Below the pieces are notes generated by a model. That model searched no databases, was not told the origin of the DNA, and saw only the letters and a program-made list of their open reading frames with translations. A stretch of DNA of 64,000 nt from a virus. The stretch is from positions 32,001 to 96,000 of the IMG/VR virus record IMGVR_UViG_3300042890_006166. One strand, given 5' to 3'. This document shows, one piece after another, positions 8,600-56,567 of this stretch (position 1 is the first letter of the stretch; each line of letters opens with the position of its first letter). A program made the translations under genes and the position numbers.

Positions 8600-8959
8600 A
8601 TGACAAAAGTTTACGTTACAAACTCCAGTTTAATGGCTGCTATTCTTGAATCTAAGAAAAAAGGCCAACTGACCAACGAGACAATCGAAATGTTCAATTT
8701 AATGATTGCTGGTATTTCCAAGAAAATGGCTTACAAAGATCCAGATGATAAAGCTGATTGTATGGCTTTTGCAATGGAAGATCTTTGTAAGTATTGGAAT
8801 AGGTTCGATCCAACCAAATCAAATAATCCATTTGCTTATTACACACAAATAGCAAAAAATGGATTTGCAAAAGGGTGGAAAAAAATTCACCCCCCTAAAT
8901 CCCCTAAAACCATTCCATTTTCTTATATTACAGGAGAAGACAATTCCTATAATATTTAG
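8600..8959 (+). CDS. gp55: T4 gp55-like late-transcription sigma factor (short)
   Basis: YVTNSSL start and C..YWNRFDPTKSNNPFAYYTQIA match the gp55 family signature (NFDPEKS.NPFAYFTQI). Confidence 0.8.
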   Translation: MTKVYVTNSSLMAAILESKKKGQLTNETIEMFNLMIAGISKKMAYKDPDDKADCMAFAMEDLCKYWNRFDPTKSNNPFAYYTQIAKNGFAKGWKKIHPPKSPKTIPFSYITGEDNSYNI

Positions 8960-9445: not shown

Positions 9446-10044
9446 TCGACTTTCAGGATCAGGCCAGAAAATTAAGAAGTGAATTTCCTTCTTTAACTAA
9501 ACTTAATTCATTGATAAACGAGGAATTTTTGGAAAAATATGGGCCAAGCTCGAATCACTCTGGAGAGAAATTCACTTCTTTTAAAAGCGGAAAAATTTAT
9601 TTTGCGTTACACACAACAAAAACAAATCCAGGAGAAAAAAATCCCTTCGTAAATAGATATCCGTGCTTTCTTTTTTTATCAGAAGAAAGAATTGGTACAG
9701 GGATGATTTGCAAAGTAATGGATCTTACAATTATTCCAAATGATAAACGGGCAGAAATTTTAACTAGACTAACTTCTACTTTTTCAGAAATACTTCAAGA
9801 AAATATGAGAAATATTTTGGGATCTCAAATGCCTTTGAATCTTAAGGGAGAAAATTTACAAAAAATATTCAAAGGAACTGGATACGAGTTTGCAATTTTT
9901 GGGTTTCACAAGGAAAATTTACGTGACGTGAAAATTGTAGATTATGAAGACTGGGTAAAAATTCCTTATTTCAATAACGCCTCAATAGAGGGTCTCTCTT
10001 TGGATAAGATATATAGGGAATATAAATCGAAAATAAAAACTTGA
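9442..10044 (+). CDS. Divergent gp2-like DNA end-protector protein
   Basis: Position next to gp4; GKIYF...K......PFVNRYP.FL...MDLTIIP...R..IL pattern resembles the gp2 family. Confidence 0.5.
   Translation: MIDFQDQARKLRSEFPSLTKLNSLINEEFLEKYGPSSNHSGEKFTSFKSGKIYFALHTTKTNPGEKNPFVNRYPCFLFLSEERIGTGMICKVMDLTIIPNDKRAEILTRLTSTFSEILQENMRNILGSQMPLNLKGENLQKIFKGTGYEFAIFGFHKENLRDVKIVDYEDWVKIPYFNNASIEGLSLDKIYREYKSKIKT
10008..10015 (+). promoter_or_regulatory. Putative late promoter GATATATA for the portal genes
   Basis: Inside the 3' end of the upstream ORF, 59 nt before the portal ATG. Confidence 0.6.
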
Positions 10045-10074
10045 TTTTGTCTATAAAAATAAATTTCTGGCTTC

Positions 10075-11700
10075 ATGGCAGGATTTAACGAGAATCCAAA
10101 TACCAATCCCATATTCCAAAGAATAAGGGAATCCATCAAAAATCTGAGTAATTTCGGATTGCGGTATGGTGACATGGTGGTTAAAAATTCCCAAGCCATT
10201 GGTGCTACTGAAGCAGAATTTTTAAAGAAGGGACCTATAGAAGATGAAACAACTTTTTTCTCCTTAGGAAGACAAGATACGACAACCAGACAATACATTT
10301 CCTATTTTGATAAAGACTATGCAGGAAAAAGAGATTACTTGAGAAAATTTTCTTTAAACCCGGAAATTGAATATATTCTGGATACTGTTTGCGACGAGTC
10401 TATTTCTTATGATGGTTATAACTTTTTCGCTTATCCAGCATTCCTTAATATAACCGGGCTTAAACAAGATGTAATAGATAAAATTGATTCAACGTACAAA
10501 AAATTGTACGACATGTTTGGATTCAATGATGATATTTCTGCCTGGCAGTACTTCAGGCAGCTTTTGGTTGATGGTTTTGTAGCTTTCGAAATTGTGTATG
10601 ATGACAAAGGAAAAAATATTATCGGATTTAAAGAATTGGATGCTACCACGTTAATGCCCTCTGTAGAAAAGCAGAAAGATGGAACATTCTTGAATGTTTG
10701 GTATCAATATCCTAAGGACGAAAGAAAAAGAAGAATGCTGTATGATTCTCAGATCATTTATCTTTCTTACGCAAAGGGTAATTCTGTTTCAAGGGTAAGT
10801 TATACTGAAAGGTTAATTCGTCCATATAATGTTCTGAGGATCATAGAATACACTCGTGTTATTTGGTCTGTGATGAATGCATCTTTCCGTCTTAAAATGA
10901 CAGTTCCGGTAGGCTCCAGATCACAACAAAAGGCTATGCAAACACTCGGAGAGTTAATGTCTATCTATAAAGAAGATATTCAATTCAACGACGAAAGCGG
11001 TGAACTTTCAGTAAACGGACAACCAAAAATTCAGTTCTACAAAAATTATCTTATGCCCAAAGGTGCTTTGGGTACTCCTAATATTGAACCTTTAAATACT
11101 GCTGGACCAAATTTGAATGATCCAGCTCCTTTGGCTTACTTTTTTGACAAGTTGGTTCAAGAATCTAAAATACCATTTTCTAGATTTCAAGGGCCTGATG
11201 GCGGATCAACAGGTAAATATGCCAATGCAGCAGAAGGATTAGACAAAGAAGAAATTAGATTTTCGAAGTTCATTATGAGATTGAGATCTGTTTTTCAAGA
11301 TATTCTCATAAAACCTCTATGGATTCAATTGTGTCGTGATTTTCCCCAATTGGAGAAGGATTATATGTTCAGAAGTCAGCTTGGTTTAACTTTTGTTTCA
11401 GATAATCCGTTTCGTGTTAACCAGGAGATAGAAACGATGAGCAAAAGAAAAGAATCCATCGACTCTATGTACCAATTAGTGGATGAAGAAGGTCAACCTT
11501 TCTTTTCTTTAGGATTTTTGATTGAAAATTTTCTTGGAATGACCGAGGATGATATCAAGGCTAATGAAGAAGCGAAAGAGAAGGCAAAAAAGAAAAAAGA
11601 AAAAAATTCACCTGAGGGAGAAGGGGGAGAAGAAGGCGGTGCTCCTCCTGAAGGGCCAGAACCAGGAGCAGCCCCGCCTGAAACAGAAACACCAACATAA
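10075..11700 (+). CDS. gp20: Portal protein, copy A (T4 gp20-like)
   Basis: EIEYILDTVCDESI, WQYFRQLLVDG..AFEIV, FYKNY.MP, YFFDKL.QESKIP.SR, EEIRFSKFI.RLRS.F motifs of gp20 portals. Confidence 0.88.
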   Translation: MAGFNENPNTNPIFQRIRESIKNLSNFGLRYGDMVVKNSQAIGATEAEFLKKGPIEDETTFFSLGRQDTTTRQYISYFDKDYAGKRDYLRKFSLNPEIEYILDTVCDESISYDGYNFFAYPAFLNITGLKQDVIDKIDSTYKKLYDMFGFNDDISAWQYFRQLLVDGFVAFEIVYDDKGKNIIGFKELDATTLMPSVEKQKDGTFLNVWYQYPKDERKRRMLYDSQIIYLSYAKGNSVSRVSYTERLIRPYNVLRIIEYTRVIWSVMNASFRLKMTVPVGSRSQQKAMQTLGELMSIYKEDIQFNDESGELSVNGQPKIQFYKNYLMPKGALGTPNIEPLNTAGPNLNDPAPLAYFFDKLVQESKIPFSRFQGPDGGSTGKYANAAEGLDKEEIRFSKFIMRLRSVFQDILIKPLWIQLCRDFPQLEKDYMFRSQLGLTFVSDNPFRVNQEIETMSKRKESIDSMYQLVDEEGQPFFSLGFLIENFLGMTEDDIKANEEAKEKAKKKKEKNSPEGEGGEEGGAPPEGPEPGAAPPETETPT

Positions 11701-11702
11701 TT

Positions 11703-13310
11703 ATGGCAGGATTTAACGACGATAACAGCCAACAGCGTTCTTTCTTAGGAAATTTGTATCGAAATCTGTCCAGAATTGGAAGGTTTGGAATGCAGTATGA
11801 GGATATGGTCATCAGAAATTCGCAGGCTATAGGAGCAACTGAATCTACTTTTTTCAATAATCAAGGAACAGGATTTACTGAGAATGATGCTTTCTTTTGG
11901 ACATTGGGTTATCAAGACACCAGAGTAAGAAAATACATCGCTTATTTCGACAAGGACTATTTAGGCAAAAGAGAGTTTCTACGAAAATTTGCATTAAATG
12001 GAGAAATTGATTTTATCCTAGATACCCTTTCGGACGATGCCATAAATTATGACGATAAAAATTTCTTTGGATATCCTTCGTTATTGAATGTAGATCTAAA
12101 GCCCGAGGTGCGAGCTAAGGTGGAAGAAAATTTCAGAACTTTATACATGCTTTTTGGTTTTCAACAAAGCATTTTGGCCTGGCAATATTTCCGTCAATTT
12201 TTGATTGATGGGTTTTTGGCTTTTGAAATTGTTTACTCTACAGACGGCAAGAAAATTGTTGGATTTAAAGAATTAGATGCTACTTCTTTACAACCAGCCA
12301 CAGAACAACAACCTAACAAAGAATTTCAACAAATTTGGATTCAATATCCAGGTGATCCTAGAATGACCCGAAAATTAAAGGCAGAGCAAGTAATTTATCT
12401 TTCCTATGCCAAGGGTAACTCAGTTTCTAGAGTAAGTTATACGGAAAGACTTATTAGATCGTATAACATTTTAAGGGTGATGGAGAACACAAGAGTTATT
12501 TGGAATGTGATGAACGCTTCATACCGTTTGAAATTTGTTATTCCAGTTGGAACACAATCAGGACAAAAAGCAATGCAAACACTGGGACAATTAATGTCTC
12601 AGTATAAAGAAGAAATTCAAATCAACGATACTTCCGGGGAATTAACCGTAAATGGAGCTCCCAAAGTTCAGTTTTACAAAAATTATTTATTCCCTGAAAA
12701 AGACGGAGAATCTCCGGACATCAACACATTAAATCCTGCTGGACCCGATTTCAACGTCATGGAAAACGTTGTGTACTTTTACAACAAGCTGAAGTTAGAC
12801 TCCAAAATTCCATATGCTAGATTTGCTTCGAGGAGTGGTCCTGTGACTTACCAGATTTCTATCGATCAGTTAGAAAGAGATGAAATTAGATATGAAAAAT
12901 TCGTTACCCGTTTGAGGTCTGTTTTTCAAGAACTTTTGGTAAAACCTTTATACATACAAACCTGTTTGGATTTTCCGGCTTTGTCTGAAGACCGGTCTTT
13001 CAAAGTTAATTTGGGGTTGGATTTTGTGAAAGAAAATGTTTTTGAGCAATTGATTGTACTTTCTAATTATACAAAAAGAACAGCTTTTATTACCGCCTTG
13101 GGTGATATGAAACAGAAGATTGGGGAAGAAGAAGTTCCTTATTTCGATAAGGAATGGCTTATCAAAAGATGGCTAGGTCTGAGCATGGACGAATATCGTT
13201 CCAATCAAAAGTACAAAGATGATGAAAAAAAACAGGCAGACAAGGATAAAAAGGACAAGGGAGAAGAAGGAGGAGGTGGAGAAGGGGGAGCACCGGATTT
13301 TACGCTTTAA
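11703..13310 (+). CDS. gp20: Portal protein, copy B (T4 gp20-like)
   Basis: Full-length paralog of copy A with the same gp20 motifs (EIDFILDTLSDDAI, YFYNKLKLDSKIP, DEIRYEKFV.RLRS.F). Confidence 0.88.
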   Translation: MAGFNDDNSQQRSFLGNLYRNLSRIGRFGMQYEDMVIRNSQAIGATESTFFNNQGTGFTENDAFFWTLGYQDTRVRKYIAYFDKDYLGKREFLRKFALNGEIDFILDTLSDDAINYDDKNFFGYPSLLNVDLKPEVRAKVEENFRTLYMLFGFQQSILAWQYFRQFLIDGFLAFEIVYSTDGKKIVGFKELDATSLQPATEQQPNKEFQQIWIQYPGDPRMTRKLKAEQVIYLSYAKGNSVSRVSYTERLIRSYNILRVMENTRVIWNVMNASYRLKFVIPVGTQSGQKAMQTLGQLMSQYKEEIQINDTSGELTVNGAPKVQFYKNYLFPEKDGESPDINTLNPAGPDFNVMENVVYFYNKLKLDSKIPYARFASRSGPVTYQISIDQLERDEIRYEKFVTRLRSVFQELLVKPLYIQTCLDFPALSEDRSFKVNLGLDFVKENVFEQLIVLSNYTKRTAFITALGDMKQKIGEEEVPYFDKEWLIKRWLGLSMDEYRSNQKYKDDEKKQADKDKKDKGEEGGGGEGGAPDFTL

Positions 13311-25401: not shown

Positions 25402-25409
25402 GATATATA
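25402..25409 (+). promoter_or_regulatory. Putative late promoter GATATATA
   Basis: Intergenic, 16 nt before the protease ATG. Confidence 0.75.
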
Positions 25410-25425: not shown

Positions 25426-27459
25426 ATGATGATGGAAGATTTACCTTTTATGAATGAGAATCTGGTGTTTATCTTGGAGAAGCAAGGTCATCACGTTGAG
25501 GCTTCTAAAGACTCAGATGGCTACACTTTAAAAGGTATTGCAGCACAGTTCGGGAAAGAAAACAATAACAACAGAATTTACGAAGAAAGTGAATATCTCC
25601 CACATTTGGATTACCTGAATGATAAGATCAAACAAAAGAGATTGGTTGGAGAGTTGGATCATCCTGAAAAATTTGATGTCTCTTTGAAGAATATCTCTCA
25701 TATCATCGAGGATCTCCAATACGACAAAAGCGGAAGAGTACTTAAAATCACGGTAAAATTGCTTGACACTCCTGCTGGCCAAATAGCCAAGAAATTGGTT
25801 GATGCAGGCATTCCACTTTCTATTTCTTCTCGTGCAGCTGGAAATGTTGGCCCAGATAAGAAAGTTCAAATTAAAAAAATCTTCACTTATGATCTTGTAG
25901 CAGATCCAGGTTTTCAGGATGCTCAATTAGAAAGAGTATACGAAAGCGCTGGTTTTACATTCTCTGATTTTTCGAATCGGAACAAAAATTCAGTTGTTCA
26001 CGATCTAAAATGTCTCAACGAGTCTTTAGGTATCAAAAATGATTCGGGAGTGATGATATATAAGGTTGACGATAATGAAGAATTTAAAAAAATACTCAAA
26101 TCAGACAAAAATAAAAATAACATCATGGAGTCCAGAAAAGAATATGTAACGAGTGAAGAACTCAACAATTATTCCATTTTCTTAAAGAAAAAAATGGATG
26201 AGCTCGAGTCTCAAATCCGCGAGGCTAAGACCACTCAGAATTTGGTAGAAAGCTCAGATTCTTATACAAAACAACTCGAGGAAAGAGTAGATCGTCTAGA
26301 AAAATACTGCGAGTATTTGGCAGAAAATCTGGAAGCATCTATCAAGTATGGCGAATACGTTGCAGAGAATTTGGACAACTCCATTACTTACAGCAAATAT
26401 CTCGCAGAGAATCTTGACAAGAATATCTCCTATTCTAAATACCTCGCAGAGAACGTTGACAAGTCAATTTTGTATTCCGAGTATGTGGCAGAGAACGTGG
26501 ATAAAGGTATTAACTACTCTAAATATCTCGCAGAAAAATTGGATGACACCATTCAATATTCCGAATATCTTGCAGAGAATGTGGATCACACTATTGCCTA
26601 CTCAGAATATCTGGCAGAAAATGTAGACAGAAATATTTCTTATTCTGAATATCTCGCAGAGAAGTTAGATAGAAACATTTCTTATGCTGAATATCTCGCG
26701 GAGAATTTGGACAAAGGTATTGCCTACTCAGAATATCTTGGTGAAAACCTTGATAAAGGTATTGCCTACTCAGAATATATTGGCGAAAAATTAGAACAAG
26801 GAATTTCTTATTCCGAATATTTGGCAGAAAATGTAAACAGAACAATTTCTTATTCTGAATACATAGCCGAAAAATTAAATGGCACGATTTCGTACACCGA
26901 GTCTTTGTCTGAAAGCGTAGGATATCAACCAGTGGTTGAAAAAGACGCACGGAGACAGGCAGAAGTCGCCTCAAGAACTGAATTAGCGGAGTCTGGGTTT
27001 GCAGGAGATTATACAAATCTTGGCAAACAAATTGATTTCCTAATTGAGTCGGTCCAAACCCAAAAGACCGAAAATGATCAAAGAAAGGCTGAAAGCAAAT
27101 GGCAGCCTACTGCTCAAACACAAAAAGCAGAACAAGTTCTCAACGAGAATGCAGACGCCAAACCAACATCTGGCCACAAGTTCATCGACGAGATGCCAAC
27201 AGAGTATGCTCCGATTTGGGAGTCATTGAGCGAAGGACATAAGCAATCAATTATTGCCCAGTCTATTTTCCACAATCTCAATACACCTTATCAGATCAGA
27301 AATTTCTGGTCAACCCGTCAATTTGGACCTAAGCCTCTGGCTATGCAAAAATTGCAAGAGAACGAAAACATATCAGAGTCTTCAAACAGTCAGGCAACCG
27401 CTGCTTACAGCAACGATTATCTGAGCTGGGTGGCTAAGTCACTAGAAGGCAAATTCTAA
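25426..27459 (+). CDS. gp21: Prohead protease (T4 gp21-like) fused to a repeat-rich scaffold/core domain
   Basis: N.NNRIY, GELDHP, SH.I, TP.GQIA..L, ISSRAAG (catalytic Ser), YDLVADPGF; followed by a 14-aa-repeat coiled coil; directly upstream of the MCP. Confidence 0.9.
   Translation: MMMEDLPFMNENLVFILEKQGHHVEASKDSDGYTLKGIAAQFGKENNNNRIYEESEYLPHLDYLNDKIKQKRLVGELDHPEKFDVSLKNISHIIEDLQYDKSGRVLKITVKLLDTPAGQIAKKLVDAGIPLSISSRAAGNVGPDKKVQIKKIFTYDLVADPGFQDAQLERVYESAGFTFSDFSNRNKNSVVHDLKCLNESLGIKNDSGVMIYKVDDNEEFKKILKSDKNKNNIMESRKEYVTSEELNNYSIFLKKKMDELESQIREAKTTQNLVESSDSYTKQLEERVDRLEKYCEYLAENLEASIKYGEYVAENLDNSITYSKYLAENLDKNISYSKYLAENVDKSILYSEYVAENVDKGINYSKYLAEKLDDTIQYSEYLAENVDHTIAYSEYLAENVDRNISYSEYLAEKLDRNISYAEYLAENLDKGIAYSEYLGENLDKGIAYSEYIGEKLEQGISYSEYLAENVNRTISYSEYIAEKLNGTISYTESLSESVGYQPVVEKDARRQAEVASRTELAESGFAGDYTNLGKQIDFLIESVQTQKTENDQRKAESKWQPTAQTQKAEQVLNENADAKPTSGHKFIDEMPTEYAPIWESLSEGHKQSIIAQSIFHNLNTPYQIRNFWSTRQFGPKPLAMQKLQENENISESSNSQATAAYSNDYLSWVAKSLEGKF
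26055..26062 (+). promoter_or_regulatory. Internal late promoter GATATATA inside the protease gene
   Basis: Exact motif at the protease/scaffold junction, 62 nt before the in-frame ATG at 26125. Confidence 0.6.
26125..27459 (+). CDS. Nested in-frame scaffold/prohead core protein (gp22-like role)
   Basis: In-frame ATG (MESRKEY) preceded by AAAAATAAAAATAACATC, the same A-rich leader style as other starts, with an upstream late promoter. Confidence 0.55.
   Translation: MESRKEYVTSEELNNYSIFLKKKMDELESQIREAKTTQNLVESSDSYTKQLEERVDRLEKYCEYLAENLEASIKYGEYVAENLDNSITYSKYLAENLDKNISYSKYLAENVDKSILYSEYVAENVDKGINYSKYLAEKLDDTIQYSEYLAENVDHTIAYSEYLAENVDRNISYSEYLAEKLDRNISYAEYLAENLDKGIAYSEYLGENLDKGIAYSEYIGEKLEQGISYSEYLAENVNRTISYSEYIAEKLNGTISYTESLSESVGYQPVVEKDARRQAEVASRTELAESGFAGDYTNLGKQIDFLIESVQTQKTENDQRKAESKWQPTAQTQKAEQVLNENADAKPTSGHKFIDEMPTEYAPIWESLSEGHKQSIIAQSIFHNLNTPYQIRNFWSTRQFGPKPLAMQKLQENENISESSNSQATAAYSNDYLSWVAKSLEGKF
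26311..26898 (+). repeat. 14 x 42-bp coding tandem repeat ((E/K)YLAENLDKxIxYS)
   Basis: 14 consecutive 14-aa units seen in the translation, synonymously diverged at DNA level. Confidence 0.95.
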
Positions 27460-27484
27460 AAAAACAAAAAAAATCTCTAAAAAA

Positions 27485-29212
27485 ATGAAACTAATTAACG
27501 AAGCTGAGATCTTCGATACCTGGTCGCCTATCATCGAACAGAAAGCTGGTATCACTGATCCTTCTAAAAAAGCGTGGTTGTCTAAATACTGCCACTATCA
27601 CTCCCTCAACGAATCTGCCGGTGCATACCAGTCGTTGAACGTTGTCAACGGCATGGGTCCCGTTGCACCTCCTGTCTTTCCTGGAGCAACACAAGCTACT
27701 TCGGTTGGTGGTTACGGTCCTAACCAAGGATTCTACAGCCAATCTTGGCAAGGTTCTGGCGATAAGTTTCCTTCACTTCTTCCTTTGGCTATTCAGGTAG
27801 CTGCGAAGACTGTAGGTTTCGATATCGTTCCAGTTATTCCTATGTCAGGTCCTTCTGGCGTTTTGTCTTACCTCGACTACGTGTATGCCGGTGGTAAACT
27901 CAGTCCTCAATCCGTAGGTACTACCGCAGCCGATGCTTTGGCCGCTGCTCCTGCAATGATCAAATTGCAAATCACCACCCAGACAGACATGTCTTTACTA
28001 GTAGTAGGACCAGGCACACCAGGTACTACGTATTACATTACTAACGCTACATCAGCAGGTGCTTATATCTCTGCTAGGTTTGTTGGTCTTTCTAGGATTG
28101 ACGGCTTCCCGATCTTCGAAATTATCGGAATTACAGAAGGCGAATCTGTTGCTTCCGTTGTTAATGGGGGTGCAACTAAAGTTGGTACTTCAATCAACGG
28201 AGCTGAAGTTGGTACTACCACATCTACTGCTTCTTTGGTTAAAGCTTTGGAAGATCATATCCAAGGTTTCTCTGGAGCTGGTTTCTATGACGACCAGAAC
28301 TGGCAGGGTCCTTTCGTAGATGGTACGAGGACTTACAATCCAATGCTTAGAGGCGTAGGTGAAGAAAACTACTACAACTTGATGGGTCTTTCGACCTTCA
28401 CGAAGTTCGTAGAAGCTGACACCTTCCAGGTAGCTGCTTCCGTCACTACGGAGCAAATCCAGGACCTTAACAAGCAGTTCGGTATCGACGTCATTTCTAT
28501 GATCGAGAACGCACTGGTTAATGAGGTTTCTCAGGCGATTAACAAGCACATTCTGGCCAGAGCTTTTGCTCTCGGTTGGTCTAACTGTTATGACTTCAAC
28601 ACAGTTGAAGGTCAAAACCTGAACCTGAATTTGGTTCTTGGTGGACTTGCTGGTTCTTACACCATTCCTTCCTATGTTGGAAAAACAGACCAGCCTTTGA
28701 CTATGACTGGTACCGCAGGTCCTGCAAATGGTGGATATGAAAACTTGTCAACTCTACAGAGAAGACTTTTCTCCCGTATCCTTGCAGCCGCTAACGTGGT
28801 AGCAAACAGAGGTAGAAGGGGTCCTGCTAACTTCATCGTCACCAATGCAAACTTGGCTTCGGCGATGCAAGATATCAGCCAATTCACCTTTGCTCCTTTC
28901 ACCAATACCTTGACTCAGAACAACGGTACTTTGTACCCAGTTGGATCTTTGGCCGGTATGACCGTGTATGTGGATCAAAACATGAGGTACAACGACACCA
29001 GAATCCTCGTTGGAAGAAAAGGTGGTGATGATGAGCCAGGTCTCAAATTCATGCCTTACATGATGGCAGAATCGATTCAGACAATCTCTGAAGGTACAAT
29101 GTCACCTAAAATCGCAGTTAAGTCTCGTTACTCTCTAGTAGAAGCTGGTTTCCACCCAGAAACCATGTATCTCTGCTTCAATGTTAACCTGCCTACTGGC
29201 GGTCTGGTTTAA
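27485..29212 (+). CDS. gp23: Major capsid protein (T4 gp23-like)
   Basis: VIPMSGPSG.L.YLDY.Y, VTTEQIQDL..QFGID, E..Q.INK.I, RRG.ANF.V, G.L.G..VY.D, FMPY, KSRY; N-terminal LNE-type cleavage sites; strong terminator follows. Confidence 0.93.
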   Translation: MKLINEAEIFDTWSPIIEQKAGITDPSKKAWLSKYCHYHSLNESAGAYQSLNVVNGMGPVAPPVFPGATQATSVGGYGPNQGFYSQSWQGSGDKFPSLLPLAIQVAAKTVGFDIVPVIPMSGPSGVLSYLDYVYAGGKLSPQSVGTTAADALAAAPAMIKLQITTQTDMSLLVVGPGTPGTTYYITNATSAGAYISARFVGLSRIDGFPIFEIIGITEGESVASVVNGGATKVGTSINGAEVGTTTSTASLVKALEDHIQGFSGAGFYDDQNWQGPFVDGTRTYNPMLRGVGEENYYNLMGLSTFTKFVEADTFQVAASVTTEQIQDLNKQFGIDVISMIENALVNEVSQAINKHILARAFALGWSNCYDFNTVEGQNLNLNLVLGGLAGSYTIPSYVGKTDQPLTMTGTAGPANGGYENLSTLQRRLFSRILAAANVVANRGRRGPANFIVTNANLASAMQDISQFTFAPFTNTLTQNNGTLYPVGSLAGMTVYVDQNMRYNDTRILVGRKGGDDEPGLKFMPYMMAESIQTISEGTMSPKIAVKSRYSLVEAGFHPETMYLCFNVNLPTGGLV

Positions 29213-29233
29213 TCCTAACCAGATAACAACAAG

Positions 29234-29262
29234 AACCCCAGGCTTCGGTCTGGGGTTTTTTG
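29234..29262 (+). terminator. Rho-independent terminator with cUUCGg tetraloop after the MCP gene
   Basis: AACCCCAGGC-TTCG-GTCTGGGGTT followed by a T-tract. Confidence 0.92.
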
Positions 29263-29275
29263 TTTGTGAAGAAAA

Positions 29276-29283
29276 GATATATA
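29276..29283 (+). promoter_or_regulatory. Putative late promoter GATATATA
   Basis: Just after the MCP terminator, 21 nt before the ATG at 29305. Confidence 0.75.
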
Positions 29284-40067: not shown

Positions 40068-40718
40068 ATGTACATGGGGTGGCTAAAACGTATATTCAAT
40101 AAATCAAAAAAAATGAATTGGAAAGACAAAAGTCTAGAGGAAATACAAAATTTTTTTCAAACAAAAGATTTTCAATGGTTGAAGGGAGATCAGATGGGAA
40201 ATATCGAGAAATTCAAATCCATAGAAAAAGACGAATCTACAGGTTTAATTTTCATTTCATTTCGCTCTGGTGGAAGAATGAACGTGGAATTGGTTCAAGA
40301 ATATATGGATGTTTTCCCTTCACAAAATATAGATTTCAATGCTGTTGCTACCTCCAACCCGCATACTCCTACACAAACCAAGCCTGATATTTCATCTCAA
40401 CCCAACAAGAAAACCAACTCTGTTTCATCTGTACAGCTTTCCGAATCTCCGATATATAGCTTATTGAAGAAACAAAAAACAAATTGGGTTAACGTGAACA
40501 TCACCTTAAAATTGAATCTACCTTCCAAGAATTTGTATGGGGTTCTTACCACTTCTTTCGAGGAAGCTGACCGTGAAATTGTGAACTTCGTGACGGAAGG
40601 GATCGACATAGATGATATCAAATCCGCTTTGGGAGATTCTATTTTGGCGTATTACGACAAGAAAAAAAATCTAGTTTCTTCTGATAAATTTTTAGACCAA
40701 GTAGAAGATGGACAGTAA
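40068..40718 (+). CDS. Hypothetical protein
   Basis: 216-aa ORF, two domains joined by a P/T/S-rich linker. Confidence 0.7.
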   Translation: MYMGWLKRIFNKSKKMNWKDKSLEEIQNFFQTKDFQWLKGDQMGNIEKFKSIEKDESTGLIFISFRSGGRMNVELVQEYMDVFPSQNIDFNAVATSNPHTPTQTKPDISSQPNKKTNSVSSVQLSESPIYSLLKKQKTNWVNVNITLKLNLPSKNLYGVLTTSFEEADREIVNFVTEGIDIDDIKSALGDSILAYYDKKKNLVSSDKFLDQVEDGQ

Positions 40719-41613: not shown

Positions 41614-41946
41614 ATGATTGATTGTTTGGCAGAGATTAAGATTTTTCTAGCTAAATGTTCGGCCAAAGAAGCCAAAAAAAAATTTGATGGCGGGATTGAC
41701 TTTTCCGTGATAGATATTGGTAAAATTATTCGGGATTTAGGTTACAATAACTTAGATTTAAGTAAAGAATCTGAATTTATCATCAATTATACTATTCAAA
41801 GAAAAATAGACCAGGGGATATATAATACAAAGAACAACACCATAATGATCGTACACAAAAATCTTTCAAATGATTTTATTTCTAATTTAAATTCTTTTTT
41901 AAAGGAATACGAAAATGAATTTGAATTTTCGATCGAGATGTTGTAA
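41614..41946 (+). CDS. Hypothetical protein
   Basis: 110-aa ORF in the operon. Confidence 0.6.
   Translation: MIDCLAEIKIFLAKCSAKEAKKKFDGGIDFSVIDIGKIIRDLGYNNLDLSKESEFIINYTIQRKIDQGIYNTKNNTIMIVHKNLSNDFISNLNSFLKEYENEFEFSIEML
41817..41824 (+). promoter_or_regulatory. Possible late promoter GATATATA for the baseplate operon
   Basis: Exact motif within the upstream ORF, about 140 nt before 41964; no other late motif precedes this operon. Confidence 0.4.
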
Positions 41947-41963
41947 AAATTTGTATGAATTAG

Positions 41964-43928
41964 ATGTCCAAAAATAGTTCTTTTCAGGGAACAAACACAC
42001 CTACCACAGGAAATACTTTTTCAATAGCAGATCAAAAGCTAAATCCTATCTTAAAGGATTATTGGTTTGGTTCTAGAGAGGCATCTGCACAAGAAATTGC
42101 AAACGATCAAGTTTCAAGATGGTCGAATTTGGGATCCTCTAATCCAAATAAAGGTCCAACTGCTAGGTCTTTATTTTATAACGCTGCTAATCTATTTGGT
42201 CCAGATGCTAAATTTGGTCAATTTCTTTTTTATTCTTTTTCAAATAATTCAAACACTTTCCGGCAGGAATACTATCAATCAGAGCAAACCCAATTTAACT
42301 CTTCGATTTCTTCTATTTCATCAAAAAATCCTTCTGCTGGACAATTGGTTAGAGCCGCGAATGAGATAAGAGCTGCTATACTGCCTGGACAAATTGGGAG
42401 TACAACAAATACTGGAAACAATACTACAGGAAGCCCGGGAAAAATCATAGGAGGTGCATCTGCTCCATATTATTGGAGAGATTTTTTGTATTGTAAATAC
42501 TATGGCACAATTCCTAATAATTACATGATTACCCTAAGGAGATTCCCAGCTCCAATGAGAGATAATTTGAGCATACCCAGTCAATTAATACAAACCGATC
42601 TATACAAACAAAAAGGAGCCGGTATGCCAGTAGCCCAAGCGGTTACCTGGTGGGGAGGGCAGACTGGTAACACTTTAAATGATATTATTTCCTTTTCAAC
42701 GGGTCTTGTATTCCAATCCAAAACCCAGGAAGAAATATTAAAGGTTGAAGGGTTTGATCAAGGTTTTTTTAAGACTGTGTTGGGTAGAGCTTTGGGAACC
42801 ACTGCTGATCTAGCCGGCGCTTCACAACTATTTGGTGCTTTAGGAGATTCTCTTTCCGTTTTAGTTTCTGCGTCTGACTCTGGAAGAGGAGCAGTAACTA
42901 TTCCTAAAATAAATCAGGCTTTAAGGGATAAAATGCAAAACACTTCAAATGGTCCTCTGTCAGATTTTATTTTTAATCCAGTTGATACCGTAGATAAAAC
43001 TTATTACCGAGGAAGAGGTTTAACTTTTAGTGGTGGACCCATTTATCTCAAATTCCACTACGAGTTAACTTCTGTTGGCCAGGTTAATACGAAAGCTGCT
43101 TTGGTTGATATAATTGGAAATTTGCTAGGTTTGGGAACCAACTATGGAAATTTTCTAACTCCTGATGTTAGATACGATAACGGATTTCCCGCTATAGGTT
43201 TTCCAGGTGGAGATCAAGGATTAAAAGCTTTTTACTCTGATCCCATTAAATGGGTTAAAACCACAATTAAATATCTAGCAGATCCAGATGGAACTACGAT
43301 GGATGATCCTCAAGTTCGACAACTGAAAAAATTTACTTCGGATCTACAAACTGCTACAAATCAGGTTCAAAGTATGCTTCAACAAATCGATTCCTCCGGG
43401 GGTGGAATTGAAAAATTGGCCAAAGAGATTGAAGGCCCGCTCGGAAACATTTTGGCTTATGCCTTGGCAGATGATTTAATTGCAAAATTCGTACCCCCTC
43501 TATCACTTAAAACTGGAGCTCCTGTTGGTGAATGGCATTTGGTTGTAGGTAATCCGATGAATCCTATAGCAATGATTGGAAATTTAATTTGTTCTAATTT
43601 AGATATAGAATTTGGTGAAGTATTAGGTCCGGATGATTTTCCCACTGAAATCATAGCCACATTCACATTAGAACATGGTAGAGATCGGGAAAGAGGTGAA
43701 ATTGAATCTATGTTTAACCGTGGTGATGGAAGATTGTACCAATCTACTTTACCCACCTATTCCAACACCCAATCTACTGCCAGCACTGCACTGGTTGACG
43801 GTACCACAGTTCCTTATGATATCAATGATTCAACGTTGGCTAATCCTTACTTGTTTTTTTCTGATAACAATTTCACACCGGGTGCTGTTCAAAATAATTT
43901 CATAGACCCAAATAATCCTATCCCATAA
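41964..43928 (+). CDS. Putative baseplate/tail-tube-associated structural protein
   Basis: First gene of the baseplate operon; C-terminal WHLVVGNPMNP..MIGNL.C..L.I.F...LG.DDFP.E......L.H pattern of tube-like fold proteins. Confidence 0.55.
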   Translation: MSKNSSFQGTNTPTTGNTFSIADQKLNPILKDYWFGSREASAQEIANDQVSRWSNLGSSNPNKGPTARSLFYNAANLFGPDAKFGQFLFYSFSNNSNTFRQEYYQSEQTQFNSSISSISSKNPSAGQLVRAANEIRAAILPGQIGSTTNTGNNTTGSPGKIIGGASAPYYWRDFLYCKYYGTIPNNYMITLRRFPAPMRDNLSIPSQLIQTDLYKQKGAGMPVAQAVTWWGGQTGNTLNDIISFSTGLVFQSKTQEEILKVEGFDQGFFKTVLGRALGTTADLAGASQLFGALGDSLSVLVSASDSGRGAVTIPKINQALRDKMQNTSNGPLSDFIFNPVDTVDKTYYRGRGLTFSGGPIYLKFHYELTSVGQVNTKAALVDIIGNLLGLGTNYGNFLTPDVRYDNGFPAIGFPGGDQGLKAFYSDPIKWVKTTIKYLADPDGTTMDDPQVRQLKKFTSDLQTATNQVQSMLQQIDSSGGGIEKLAKEIEGPLGNILAYALADDLIAKFVPPLSLKTGAPVGEWHLVVGNPMNPIAMIGNLICSNLDIEFGEVLGPDDFPTEIIATFTLEHGRDRERGEIESMFNRGDGRLYQSTLPTYSNTQSTASTALVDGTTVPYDINDSTLANPYLFFSDNNFTPGAVQNNFIDPNNPIP

Positions 43929-55326: not shown

Positions 55327-55334
55327 GATATATA
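55327..55334 (+). promoter_or_regulatory. Putative late promoter GATATATA
   Basis: 27 nt before the endonuclease ATG. Confidence 0.65.
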
Positions 55335-55361: not shown

Positions 55362-56567
55362 ATGGAAATTCTTCAAAAAATCGAATCTTGGAGGGGCAAG
55401 CCTGGACAAGCTTTTGGCTCTTATCTTTTTTTAATAAAGACCAATCCCATTTATGTCTCCGATTTGGAATCGTTGACTAGTTTTTTAGATTCACATTATC
55501 ACAAGGAATCCATTTCTATCCAACAGAGATTTTATCACGTTTGGTTCGATTTCTATGAAATCGAAACTTGTTTTCATTGTGGATCCCCTAGAAAATTTGC
55601 TAACATACCGAAGTTTTCTATAGATCGTTATGGAGAAAAACCAACTAACCCTGTGAATTACTACAAAACATGTATGTTAGAAAATTGTTTAAAGAAACAC
55701 AACAAAATTTCGACCTCACAAAGTTTGTTAAAAAAATATGGGACTAGCAATCCTATGTTAGTACCTGGAGCGATGGATAAATTGAAAGAAAGCAACAGAA
55801 AAAAATATGGAACTGAATTTTTCACTTCTACGGAAGAATTCAAATCGAAAACTAAAAAAACTTTTCAAAAAAAATATGGGAGGCATCCAACAAGTTTGAA
55901 AGAAACACAAGACAAAAAAAGAAAAACAAATTTGGAAAAGTATGGATATGAGAATGCCTTGGATAATCCGGAAATTAAACAAAAATCGAAAGACACAAAC
56001 AAACAAAAATATGGGGGGAATTCGAGTATGTGTTCAAACGAGATAAAAGAAAAATCGAAAGAAACTAACCGTAAAAAACATGGTGTTGATTGGTATGTTC
56101 AAAGTGATGAATTTAAAATTAAATTCAAAGAGACTATGATGGAAAAATATGGGGTTGAGCAGGTGATGCACTACACACCTTCTTTTGAAAAATCTCTGGA
56201 TACATCTTACAAGAAAAAATTATTTGTATTTCCTTTTGGTAGAATCGAGAAAATTCAAGGATATGAATGTTTTGCCTTGAATGAATTGATTAGCTCAGAT
56301 TATTTAGAGGAAGATATTATCGTCAACAACAAAGAAATTGAAAAATATACTGGAAAAATTTGGTACTTGGATTCTGAACAAAAAAAGAGAAAATACTACC
56401 CCGATATTTATTTGAAATCTGAAAATAAAATAATTGAAGTGAAATCTGATTATACGTACGATGCTGGATATACTATAAACATCAGAAAGAAAAAAGCCTG
56501 TATCAATCTTGGATTTTTATTCGAATTTTGGATTTATGACGAAAAGGGCAACAAAAAAATAAAGTAG
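55362..56567 (+). mobile_element. Putative free-standing homing endonuclease (Zn finger + KYG repeats + PD-(D/E)XK domain)
   Basis: CFHC...CMLENC Zn ligands; about 7 repeats of roughly 23 aa (..K.TN.(E/K)KYG...); C-terminal YYPDIYL..ENKIIEVKS; inserted among conserved structural genes. Confidence 0.7.

Follow-up and report, generated by a model that had tools for sequence, protein, structure and literature searches.

A probable scaffold gene with a putative promoter of its own nested in the protease–scaffold reading frame of an uncultured jumbo phage

How a virus adjusts the proportions of scaffold and protease in its prohead is a basic question of capsid assembly, which herpesviruses address with a promoter placed inside the protease–scaffold gene. 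How might a phage supply the two proteins when both are encoded by one open reading frame (ORF)? This question is raised by the 64,000-nucleotide (nt) stretch of the virus record IMGVR_UViG_3300042890_006166 analyzed here (hereafter the window), in which a single ORF on the + strand (25426-27459) encodes a 677-residue fusion of a prohead protease and a predicted scaffold. A preliminary description of the window had proposed that a scaffold gene lies nested in frame inside this ORF, with a late promoter and a start codon of its own. Our comparison with the sequences of relatives supports the proposal: within the codons that link the two parts, an exact copy of the 8-nt box GATATATA is conserved at the nucleotide level, and an in-frame ATG at 26125 would open a protease-free scaffold gene of 444 residues (26125-27459). 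We estimate the probability of a nested scaffold gene with a separate promoter at about 80%.

Conservation of the box within the fused reading frame

The internal box (P2, 26055-26062, + strand) is formed by the codons ATG-ATA-TAT-AAG (M210-I-Y-K213) of the fusion ORF. It sits 3′ of the protease part, where the Pfam matches end by residue 167 and a conserved L-N-E stands at residues 197-199, and 5′ of the repeat array of the scaffold part. A first set of 32 IMG/VR loci (61-93% protein identity) contained 27 that cover the junction, and all of these (27/27) carry the exact box, the ATG and equal box-ATG spacing. When the sample was widened to 49% identity with metagenome assemblies and a second IMG/VR scan, the box proved exact in 32/32 distinct clade junctions (49-93% identity). 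Its flanks change within this clade: the residue before the box is K, M, Q or R (codon AAG, ATG, CAG, CGG or AGG, always ending in G) and the residue after it is K, R, N or S (codon AAA, AAG, AGA, AAT or AGT, always starting with A), while between them Ile is always ATA and Tyr always TAT. A sister clade that has I-Y-E/D at the same site provided a control, with the exact box in 0/53 distinct sequences; there, Ile is encoded by ATA in 32, ATT in 15 and ATC in 6 cases, and Tyr by TAT in 35 and TAC in 12. Since the box is exact throughout the clade despite its changing flanking codons, while the sister clade varies its I-Y codons, these comparisons argue that selection acts here on DNA and not on protein. 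The preliminary description had placed an exact motif at 26055, just past the protease domain, and had named conservation at synonymous sites in relatives as a check; the first point was borne out, and the second, once run, came out strongly in its favor.

The same signal emerged from a codon alignment of 16 unique full-length genes, in which only 46% of nucleotide positions show no change. Over the full 2 kb of the gene, the two longest stretches free of any change are GATATATAA at 26055 and AAAAATAAA at 26107; synonymous diversity has its minimum at 26053-26128, also after per-amino-acid normalization. These data bear directly on the possibility that a conserved Ile-Tyr and AT-rich codon usage suffice to explain the internal match, which would then be a by-product without a function at the DNA level. 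The I-Y pair is indeed conserved as protein even in clades that lack the exact box, and chance alone would place about one copy on each strand of the contig. Such an explanation is nevertheless contradicted by the 32 exact copies, which persist across five preceding and five following codons, and by the varied codons that the control clade uses for the same I-Y; moreover, only about 6 of some 2000 8-nt windows of the gene are invariant, and the box is among them. We consider a by-product highly improbable.

Selection on the box as DNA is also suggested by its behavior outside the gene. Across all 32 relatives' loci (up to 8 kb), 95 copies were counted on the + strand and 0 on the - strand, at up to four sites per locus: ahead of the upstream gene, ahead of the protease gene, within that gene and past the capsid gene. 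The box ahead of the upstream gene is missing from some loci, and shorter loci span fewer of the sites. By these measures, the internal box is conserved just like the intergenic copies.

GATATATA as a candidate late promoter

The window is part of a viral contig of 112,745 nt, whose completeness estimate of 41% corresponds to a genome of roughly 270 kb and whose + strand holds nearly all genes. The window contains 15 copies of GATATATA, every one on the + strand, where chance would give 1.75 over both strands; the whole contig has 23 copies on the + strand and 0 on the - strand. By contrast, 24/24 one-mismatch variants are at background in the contig and lack strand bias, indicating that all eight positions matter. 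Sixteen of the 23 copies are intergenic; 15 of these have the ATG of a long ORF 5-32 nt downstream, and the sixteenth (21909) stands before an ORF with a TTG start. Three more lie 9-37 nt before the end of the preceding gene, and four lie deeper within ORFs; of these four, the copy at 26055 alone stands at a long distance (1405 nt) from the ORF end. The genes behind the boxes include those for the portal, the protease and a baseplate wedge protein, and the copy at 29276 directly follows the terminator after the capsid gene.

The box does not match the T4 late consensus TATAAATA, and GATAAATA is at background in the contig (6 on +, 5 on -). Among 7-mers enriched upstream of genes, ATATATA ranks first both in the contig and in 4/5 distant megaphage relatives and within the top ten in the fifth (LR756501), and almost all relatives have it ahead of their protease gene. 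The window also encodes a gp55-like late sigma factor (8600-8959, + strand), which matches T4 gp55 (E=1.8e-6) and phrog_234 'late sigma transcription factor' (E=1.2e-13). From its position, strand and strictness, together with the encoded gp55-like sigma factor, we infer that GATATATA is this phage's counterpart of the T4 late promoter TATAAATA, and the gp55-like factor is the likely reader of the boxes.

The box could alternatively be a different cis signal, either an RNA processing site or a binding site for a phage regulator, which cuts or regulates a long mRNA. Its departure from the T4 consensus agrees with such a role, and our literature search found no paper on a GATATATA phage promoter. 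Against a processing or regulator site stand the variable spacing between box and start codon (5-62 nt), the copy directly after a terminator, the encoded gp55-like sigma factor and the presence of a late box at the homologous place in T4 and 121Q. Processing at this site would, moreover, still give a scaffold-plus-capsid mRNA, so that the nested outcome would be much the same. We regard this alternative as unlikely and retain the reading of GATATATA as a late-type promoter box.

Other boxes and neighboring genes of the contig were recorded alongside. One intragenic GATATATA copy (40451-40458, in ORF 40068-40718, 268 nt before the ORF end) is encoded by CCG-ATA-TAT-AGC (P-I-Y-S) in the same codon phase as the copy at 26055; in-frame TTG and GTG codons follow, and it may mark a second nested gene or a promoter with a long leader. 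Another (41817-41824) lies inside an ORF, 130 nt before its end and 139 nt before a 654-residue gene at 41964, and a third, at contig position 12324 (some 10.4 kb ahead of the window), lies inside an ORF, 175 nt before its end. Tandem portal paralogs are encoded at 10075-11700 (541 residues) and 11703-13310 (535 residues), with phrog_213 matches at E=2e-58 and 6e-57, respectively. Amid the structural genes there is also a homing-endonuclease-like gene (55362-56567; phrog_3339, E=1e-20) with its own GATATATA box at 55327.

The candidate internal start codon and the two predicted products

The ATG at 26125 is in frame with the fusion (26125-25426 = 699 = 233 x 3) and encodes Met234. It is separated from the box by an A-rich leader of 62 nt (26063-26124) that also codes for the fusion's linker, contains the invariant AAAAATAAA (26107-26115) and falls in the stretch of lowest synonymous diversity. 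The preliminary description had pointed to both the A-rich leader and the in-frame ATG, and both held up: within the clade, the ATG and its spacing from the box are invariant. Across the family (27-93% identity), 72/73 distinct junctions have a Met at a distance of 3-7 residues upstream of the conserved block with which the scaffold part opens. The exact position of this boundary Met floats, a feature common in start codons but not in structural residues. Scored with a start-context position weight matrix built from 82 gene starts of the contig, the ATG reaches 2.8, compared with a mean of 3.2 for the true starts and -3.0 for 479 internal in-frame ATGs, which places it in the top 3% of the internal ones. 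AAAAATAAA, which is invariant in the relatives, lies 10-18 nt 5′ of the ATG, and three other copies 8-11 nt before starts lend weak support to a role in initiation. The leader RNA is predicted to be essentially unstructured (-6.5 kcal/mol for 100 nt), with no difference from shuffled sequences. An out-of-frame ATG at 26075, 12 nt past the box, was considered as a start and rejected, as it is absent from relatives.

Downstream of the nested gene, the gp23-like major capsid protein is encoded at 27485-29212 (+ strand; Pfam Gp23, 2.2e-36), followed by a strong intrinsic terminator (29231-29260; 13-pair stem, then a T run) and the next box at 29276. GATATATA is absent from 26062 to 29276, and the first strong terminator is the one at 29231, where the protease–scaffold–capsid unit would end. 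Capsid mRNA must therefore stem from two boxes, those at 25402 and 26055, the second of which would raise the scaffold and capsid messages relative to the protease part. That the internal box also feeds capsid mRNA, as had been suggested at the outset, is supported by this arrangement, in which the capsid gene lacks a separate box and the sole strong terminator comes after this gene.

The same arrangement could be taken to mean that the internal box is a real promoter that solely boosts capsid transcription, with the scaffold made only as a fusion and Met234 an ordinary residue. Apart from the boxless capsid gene, this explanation can draw on the Tenacibaculum phage PTm1 and locus L117, whose genes are fused without a boundary Met, and on the many fused relatives that lack the internal box. 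It would, however, leave 1.4 kb of untranslated mRNA before the capsid gene. It is further weakened by the boundary Met of 72/73 junctions, with its start-codon-like floating position, by the minimum of synonymous diversity just before the ATG and by an ATG context that resembles real starts. A purely capsid-boosting role therefore has, in our judgment, only a small chance of being correct, and we favor the nested scaffold gene.

The protease part of the fusion (residues 1-199, 25426-26022) was identified by several matches. Residues 17-167 match the Pfam prohead protease families Peptidase_S77 and S80, with a score for Peptidase_S77 (PF03420) of 33.6 bits against a cut-off of 27; the ORF matches phrog_207 'head maturation protease' (1.7e-38), and the protease part matches the solved structure of T4 gp21 (PDB 5JBL, E=1.1e-3). 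T4 gp21 itself was aligned at E=4e-10, with its ELNHP and SSRG opposite ELDHP and SSRA. H79 and S134/S135, which we take to be catalytic by analogy with gp21, are invariant among relatives. By these matches, the protease part is assigned to the T4 gp21 type (Peptidase S77). The fusion frame is unbroken in 23/23 close relatives with full-length sequence, as it is in almost all of the ~80 relatives at greater distance. Toward the end of the protease part, ADPGF is conserved at residues 159-163 and L-N-E at residues 197-199 (26014-26022), where N198 and E199 are invariant even at 35-40% identity. T4 gp21 prefers cleavage at L/I-x-E, and motifs of the same type occur in the capsid protein (LINE at its start and SLNE further on). 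Given its invariance and this motif likeness, the L-N-E is a candidate self-cleavage site.

The scaffold part directly precedes the capsid gene and is predicted to be elongated and mostly helical. It contains an array of 42-nt (14-residue) repeats (26396-26877; Tandem Repeats Finder) with the unit Y-S-E-Y-L-A-E-N-L-D-x-x-I. In the AlphaFold model, the 444 residues are almost all helix, including one helix of about 220 residues, at a mean predicted local distance difference test (pLDDT) score of 50, a low confidence that is expected when a coiled coil is modeled as a monomer. Both results agree with the earlier proposal that the ATG opens a repeat-rich coiled coil. The best-predicted portion is a small helical C-terminal domain (27172-27324; pLDDT about 72-75), a candidate capsid-binding end, and a P..IW block and FW.(T/S)R in the C-terminal region are kept down to 35% identity. 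L/I-x-E motifs number 24 in residues 234-677 and 4 in residues 1-233 (I-M-E at 233-235, which spans the internal Met, was left out of both counts), and each 14-residue repeat of the repeat region (26299-26916) bears L-A-E or a similar L-x-E. This pattern fits T4-type cleavage after L/I-x-E, by which the scaffold would be cut into peptides of ~14 residues.

A second dip in synonymous diversity was observed in the scaffold gene at 27097-27130, where ACT GCT CAA ACA CAA AAA GCA GA (P-T-A-Q-T-Q-K-A) is nearly invariant in 16 relatives; neither a box nor a start codon is found near it. An overlapping +1-frame ORF (27044-27229) was ruled out as a real gene by stops in relatives.

Taken together, we propose the following scheme of expression. 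Transcripts from the upstream box (P1, 25402-25409, + strand), which lies 16 nt 5′ of the fusion start and is conserved upstream in relatives, would be translated from 25426 into the 677-residue fusion, whose scaffold part would bring a few protease molecules into the prohead core. The box at 26055, presumably read by the host RNA polymerase with the gp55-like late sigma factor, would give a shorter mRNA beginning near 26068-26072, which would be translated from the ATG at 26125 into the protease-free scaffold and would run on through the capsid gene to the terminator at 29231-29260. Free scaffold might be abundant and fusions few, as the preliminary description had suggested. After assembly, self-cleavage at L-N-E199 would release the protease, which would break down the scaffold at its numerous L-x-E motifs.

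Several observations weigh against this scheme. The start score discriminates weakly, as starts in this contig have no Shine-Dalgarno-like signal, and another ATG, at 26194, scores as high as that at 26125 but is unconserved in distant relatives. The distance of 62 nt between box and ATG exceeds the usual 5-32 nt and has a single counterpart, from 10008 to 10075. AAAAATAAA was rejected as a specific translation signal, with 12 copies on the + strand and 9 on the - strand and hence no strand bias. The boxes at 25402 and 26055 are identical, and a large excess of scaffold is not implied by the sequence. In BLASTP comparisons, the scaffold part showed no similarity to T4 gp22 or to the 121Q scaffold gp602 (E >=0.7 for both). 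Finally, many fused relatives carry no internal box, which is hence not essential to the fused design.

Distribution in the family and parallels in T4, lambda and herpesviruses

The fused gene is widespread, with 3826 database proteins at E <1e-5, nearly all of 650-830 residues. The shorter homologs inspected are all cut by contig ends; among them, three with an apparent start at MIYK or the internal Met (P0002, P0020 and P0110) were considered as stand-alone scaffolds and discarded as contig-edge truncations. The closest named records, the 460-735-kb uncultured megaphages LR7565xx and LR745206 (33-42% identity), have the gene fused and keep the boundary Met. The internal box, by contrast, is confined to the window's clade and a few other lineages in which its position in the linker differs. 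Three such loci at 36-39% identity, L065 (N-E-I-Y-T) and L066 and L096 (both P-I-Y-K), have an internal GATATATA about 10 codons before the boundary Met, and they also have an I-Y-E/D that is not encoded as a box. The shifted box in these loci may reflect independent gain or movement. Its different linker positions in separate lineages may point to repeated gain, which would mean that selection has repeatedly favored a separately transcribed scaffold. From this distribution, the nested start seems to belong to the whole family, and the internal promoter to have been added in some clades.

The relatives of the E/D type (e.g. L001, L003, L005, L067 and L072) are very AT-rich, and the Arg before their I-Y-E is encoded by AGG in 29 and AGA in 5 cases, often giving GATATATG, which may be a matter of shared ancestry or a weak or relic box. 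Genomes of this type carry AATATATA(C/A) upstream of their genes. A first alignment had suggested that distant megaphages keep the internal box as GATATATG; this idea was dropped, as the codons vary in the wider sample and these phages have their own upstream motif, AATATATA(C/A), so that a promoter inside their fused gene finds no support.

A late box at the corresponding place is found in phages that encode the two proteins separately. In T4 (L045, 14083-14120), the late promoter P22 has its TATAAATA box across the stop codon of gene 21, and gene 22 begins 30 nt farther on; the two genes share a frame, and the sole stop codon between them lies within this box. In 121Q, TATAAATA lies in the 66-nt gap between the protease gene 601 and the scaffold gene 602, again in the same frame. 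Both phages thus resemble the window in the protease family, in the gene order (portal...protease–scaffold–capsid) and in a late box between the protease and scaffold parts; they differ in having a stop codon and no fusion, whereas the box of the window is GATATATA and is translated as a linker. The layout of the window may therefore be the T4-type arrangement without its stop codon, the simplest history being that the stop was lost, or was gained in T4. Nested in-frame products from internal late promoters have a precedent in this phage group, as the T4 record annotates 'internal transcription and in-frame translation' in the late gene 17, although that gene encodes the terminase and its nesting does not separate two functional domains. 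PTm1 ORF-300 is likewise a single ORF with a protease and a helical scaffold-like tail just before the capsid gene; it differs in that no Met was seen at its domain boundary and no internal box in the ORF. P2 gpO is a fused protease–scaffold without a known nested product.

The other phage parallel is the C/Nu3 pair of lambda, in which the scaffold likewise occupies the 3′ portion of the protease gene in the same frame, so that both proteins share a C-terminus. To our knowledge, Nu3 arises from internal translation initiation on a single late mRNA, without a separate promoter. Lambda C is a protease of another family. Similar nested pairs occur in other tailed phages. The textbook cases from phages that we know of show only translational nesting, as in lambda C/Nu3, or separate genes, as in T4. 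The lambda C and Nu3 proteins have been described (PMC3224144). Our literature search found no paper on an internal promoter in a phage protease–scaffold gene.

A close likeness lies outside the phages. The fold of gp21 resembles that of herpes assemblin. The UL26/UL26.5 pair of herpesviruses has a promoter inside the protease–scaffold gene, an arrangement conserved across Herpesvirales in which the scaffold transcript is roughly 10-fold in excess (PMC11565193). The candidate gene described here shares with UL26.5 a 3′-coterminal, in-frame nested position and a promoter inside the protease–scaffold ORF, here seen as a box sequence, and the logic would be the same: a few fusions tether the protease, and many free scaffolds build the core. 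The differences are equally clear, as the window belongs to a bacterial virus with an 8-nt box of the sigma-factor type in place of a eukaryotic promoter, and the predicted phage mRNA would carry the capsid gene too. The preliminary description had seen here a T4-like phage that converged on the herpes-like design. The herpes-like nested design with an internal promoter is supported by the conservation in relatives, while the term 'converged' may not apply, given the late promoter at the homologous place in T4 and 121Q. As a tentative and rather doubtful extension, this phage group may link the split T4-type and the nested herpes-type designs, which would lie one stop codon apart, with the internal box gained repeatedly and the UL26/UL26.5 layout possibly inherited from tailed-phage ancestors; such inheritance is conceivable because the protease is of the gp21 type, with its assemblin-like fold.

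For this uncultured jumbo phage family, the single 'protease' ORFs probably encode two proteins, which calls for caution among annotators, and GATATATA/ATATATA as a probable late promoter core helps to annotate the genomes of the group. The internal box, with full nucleotide identity and changing amino acids in one clade, is a clear case of regulatory DNA embedded in coding sequence.

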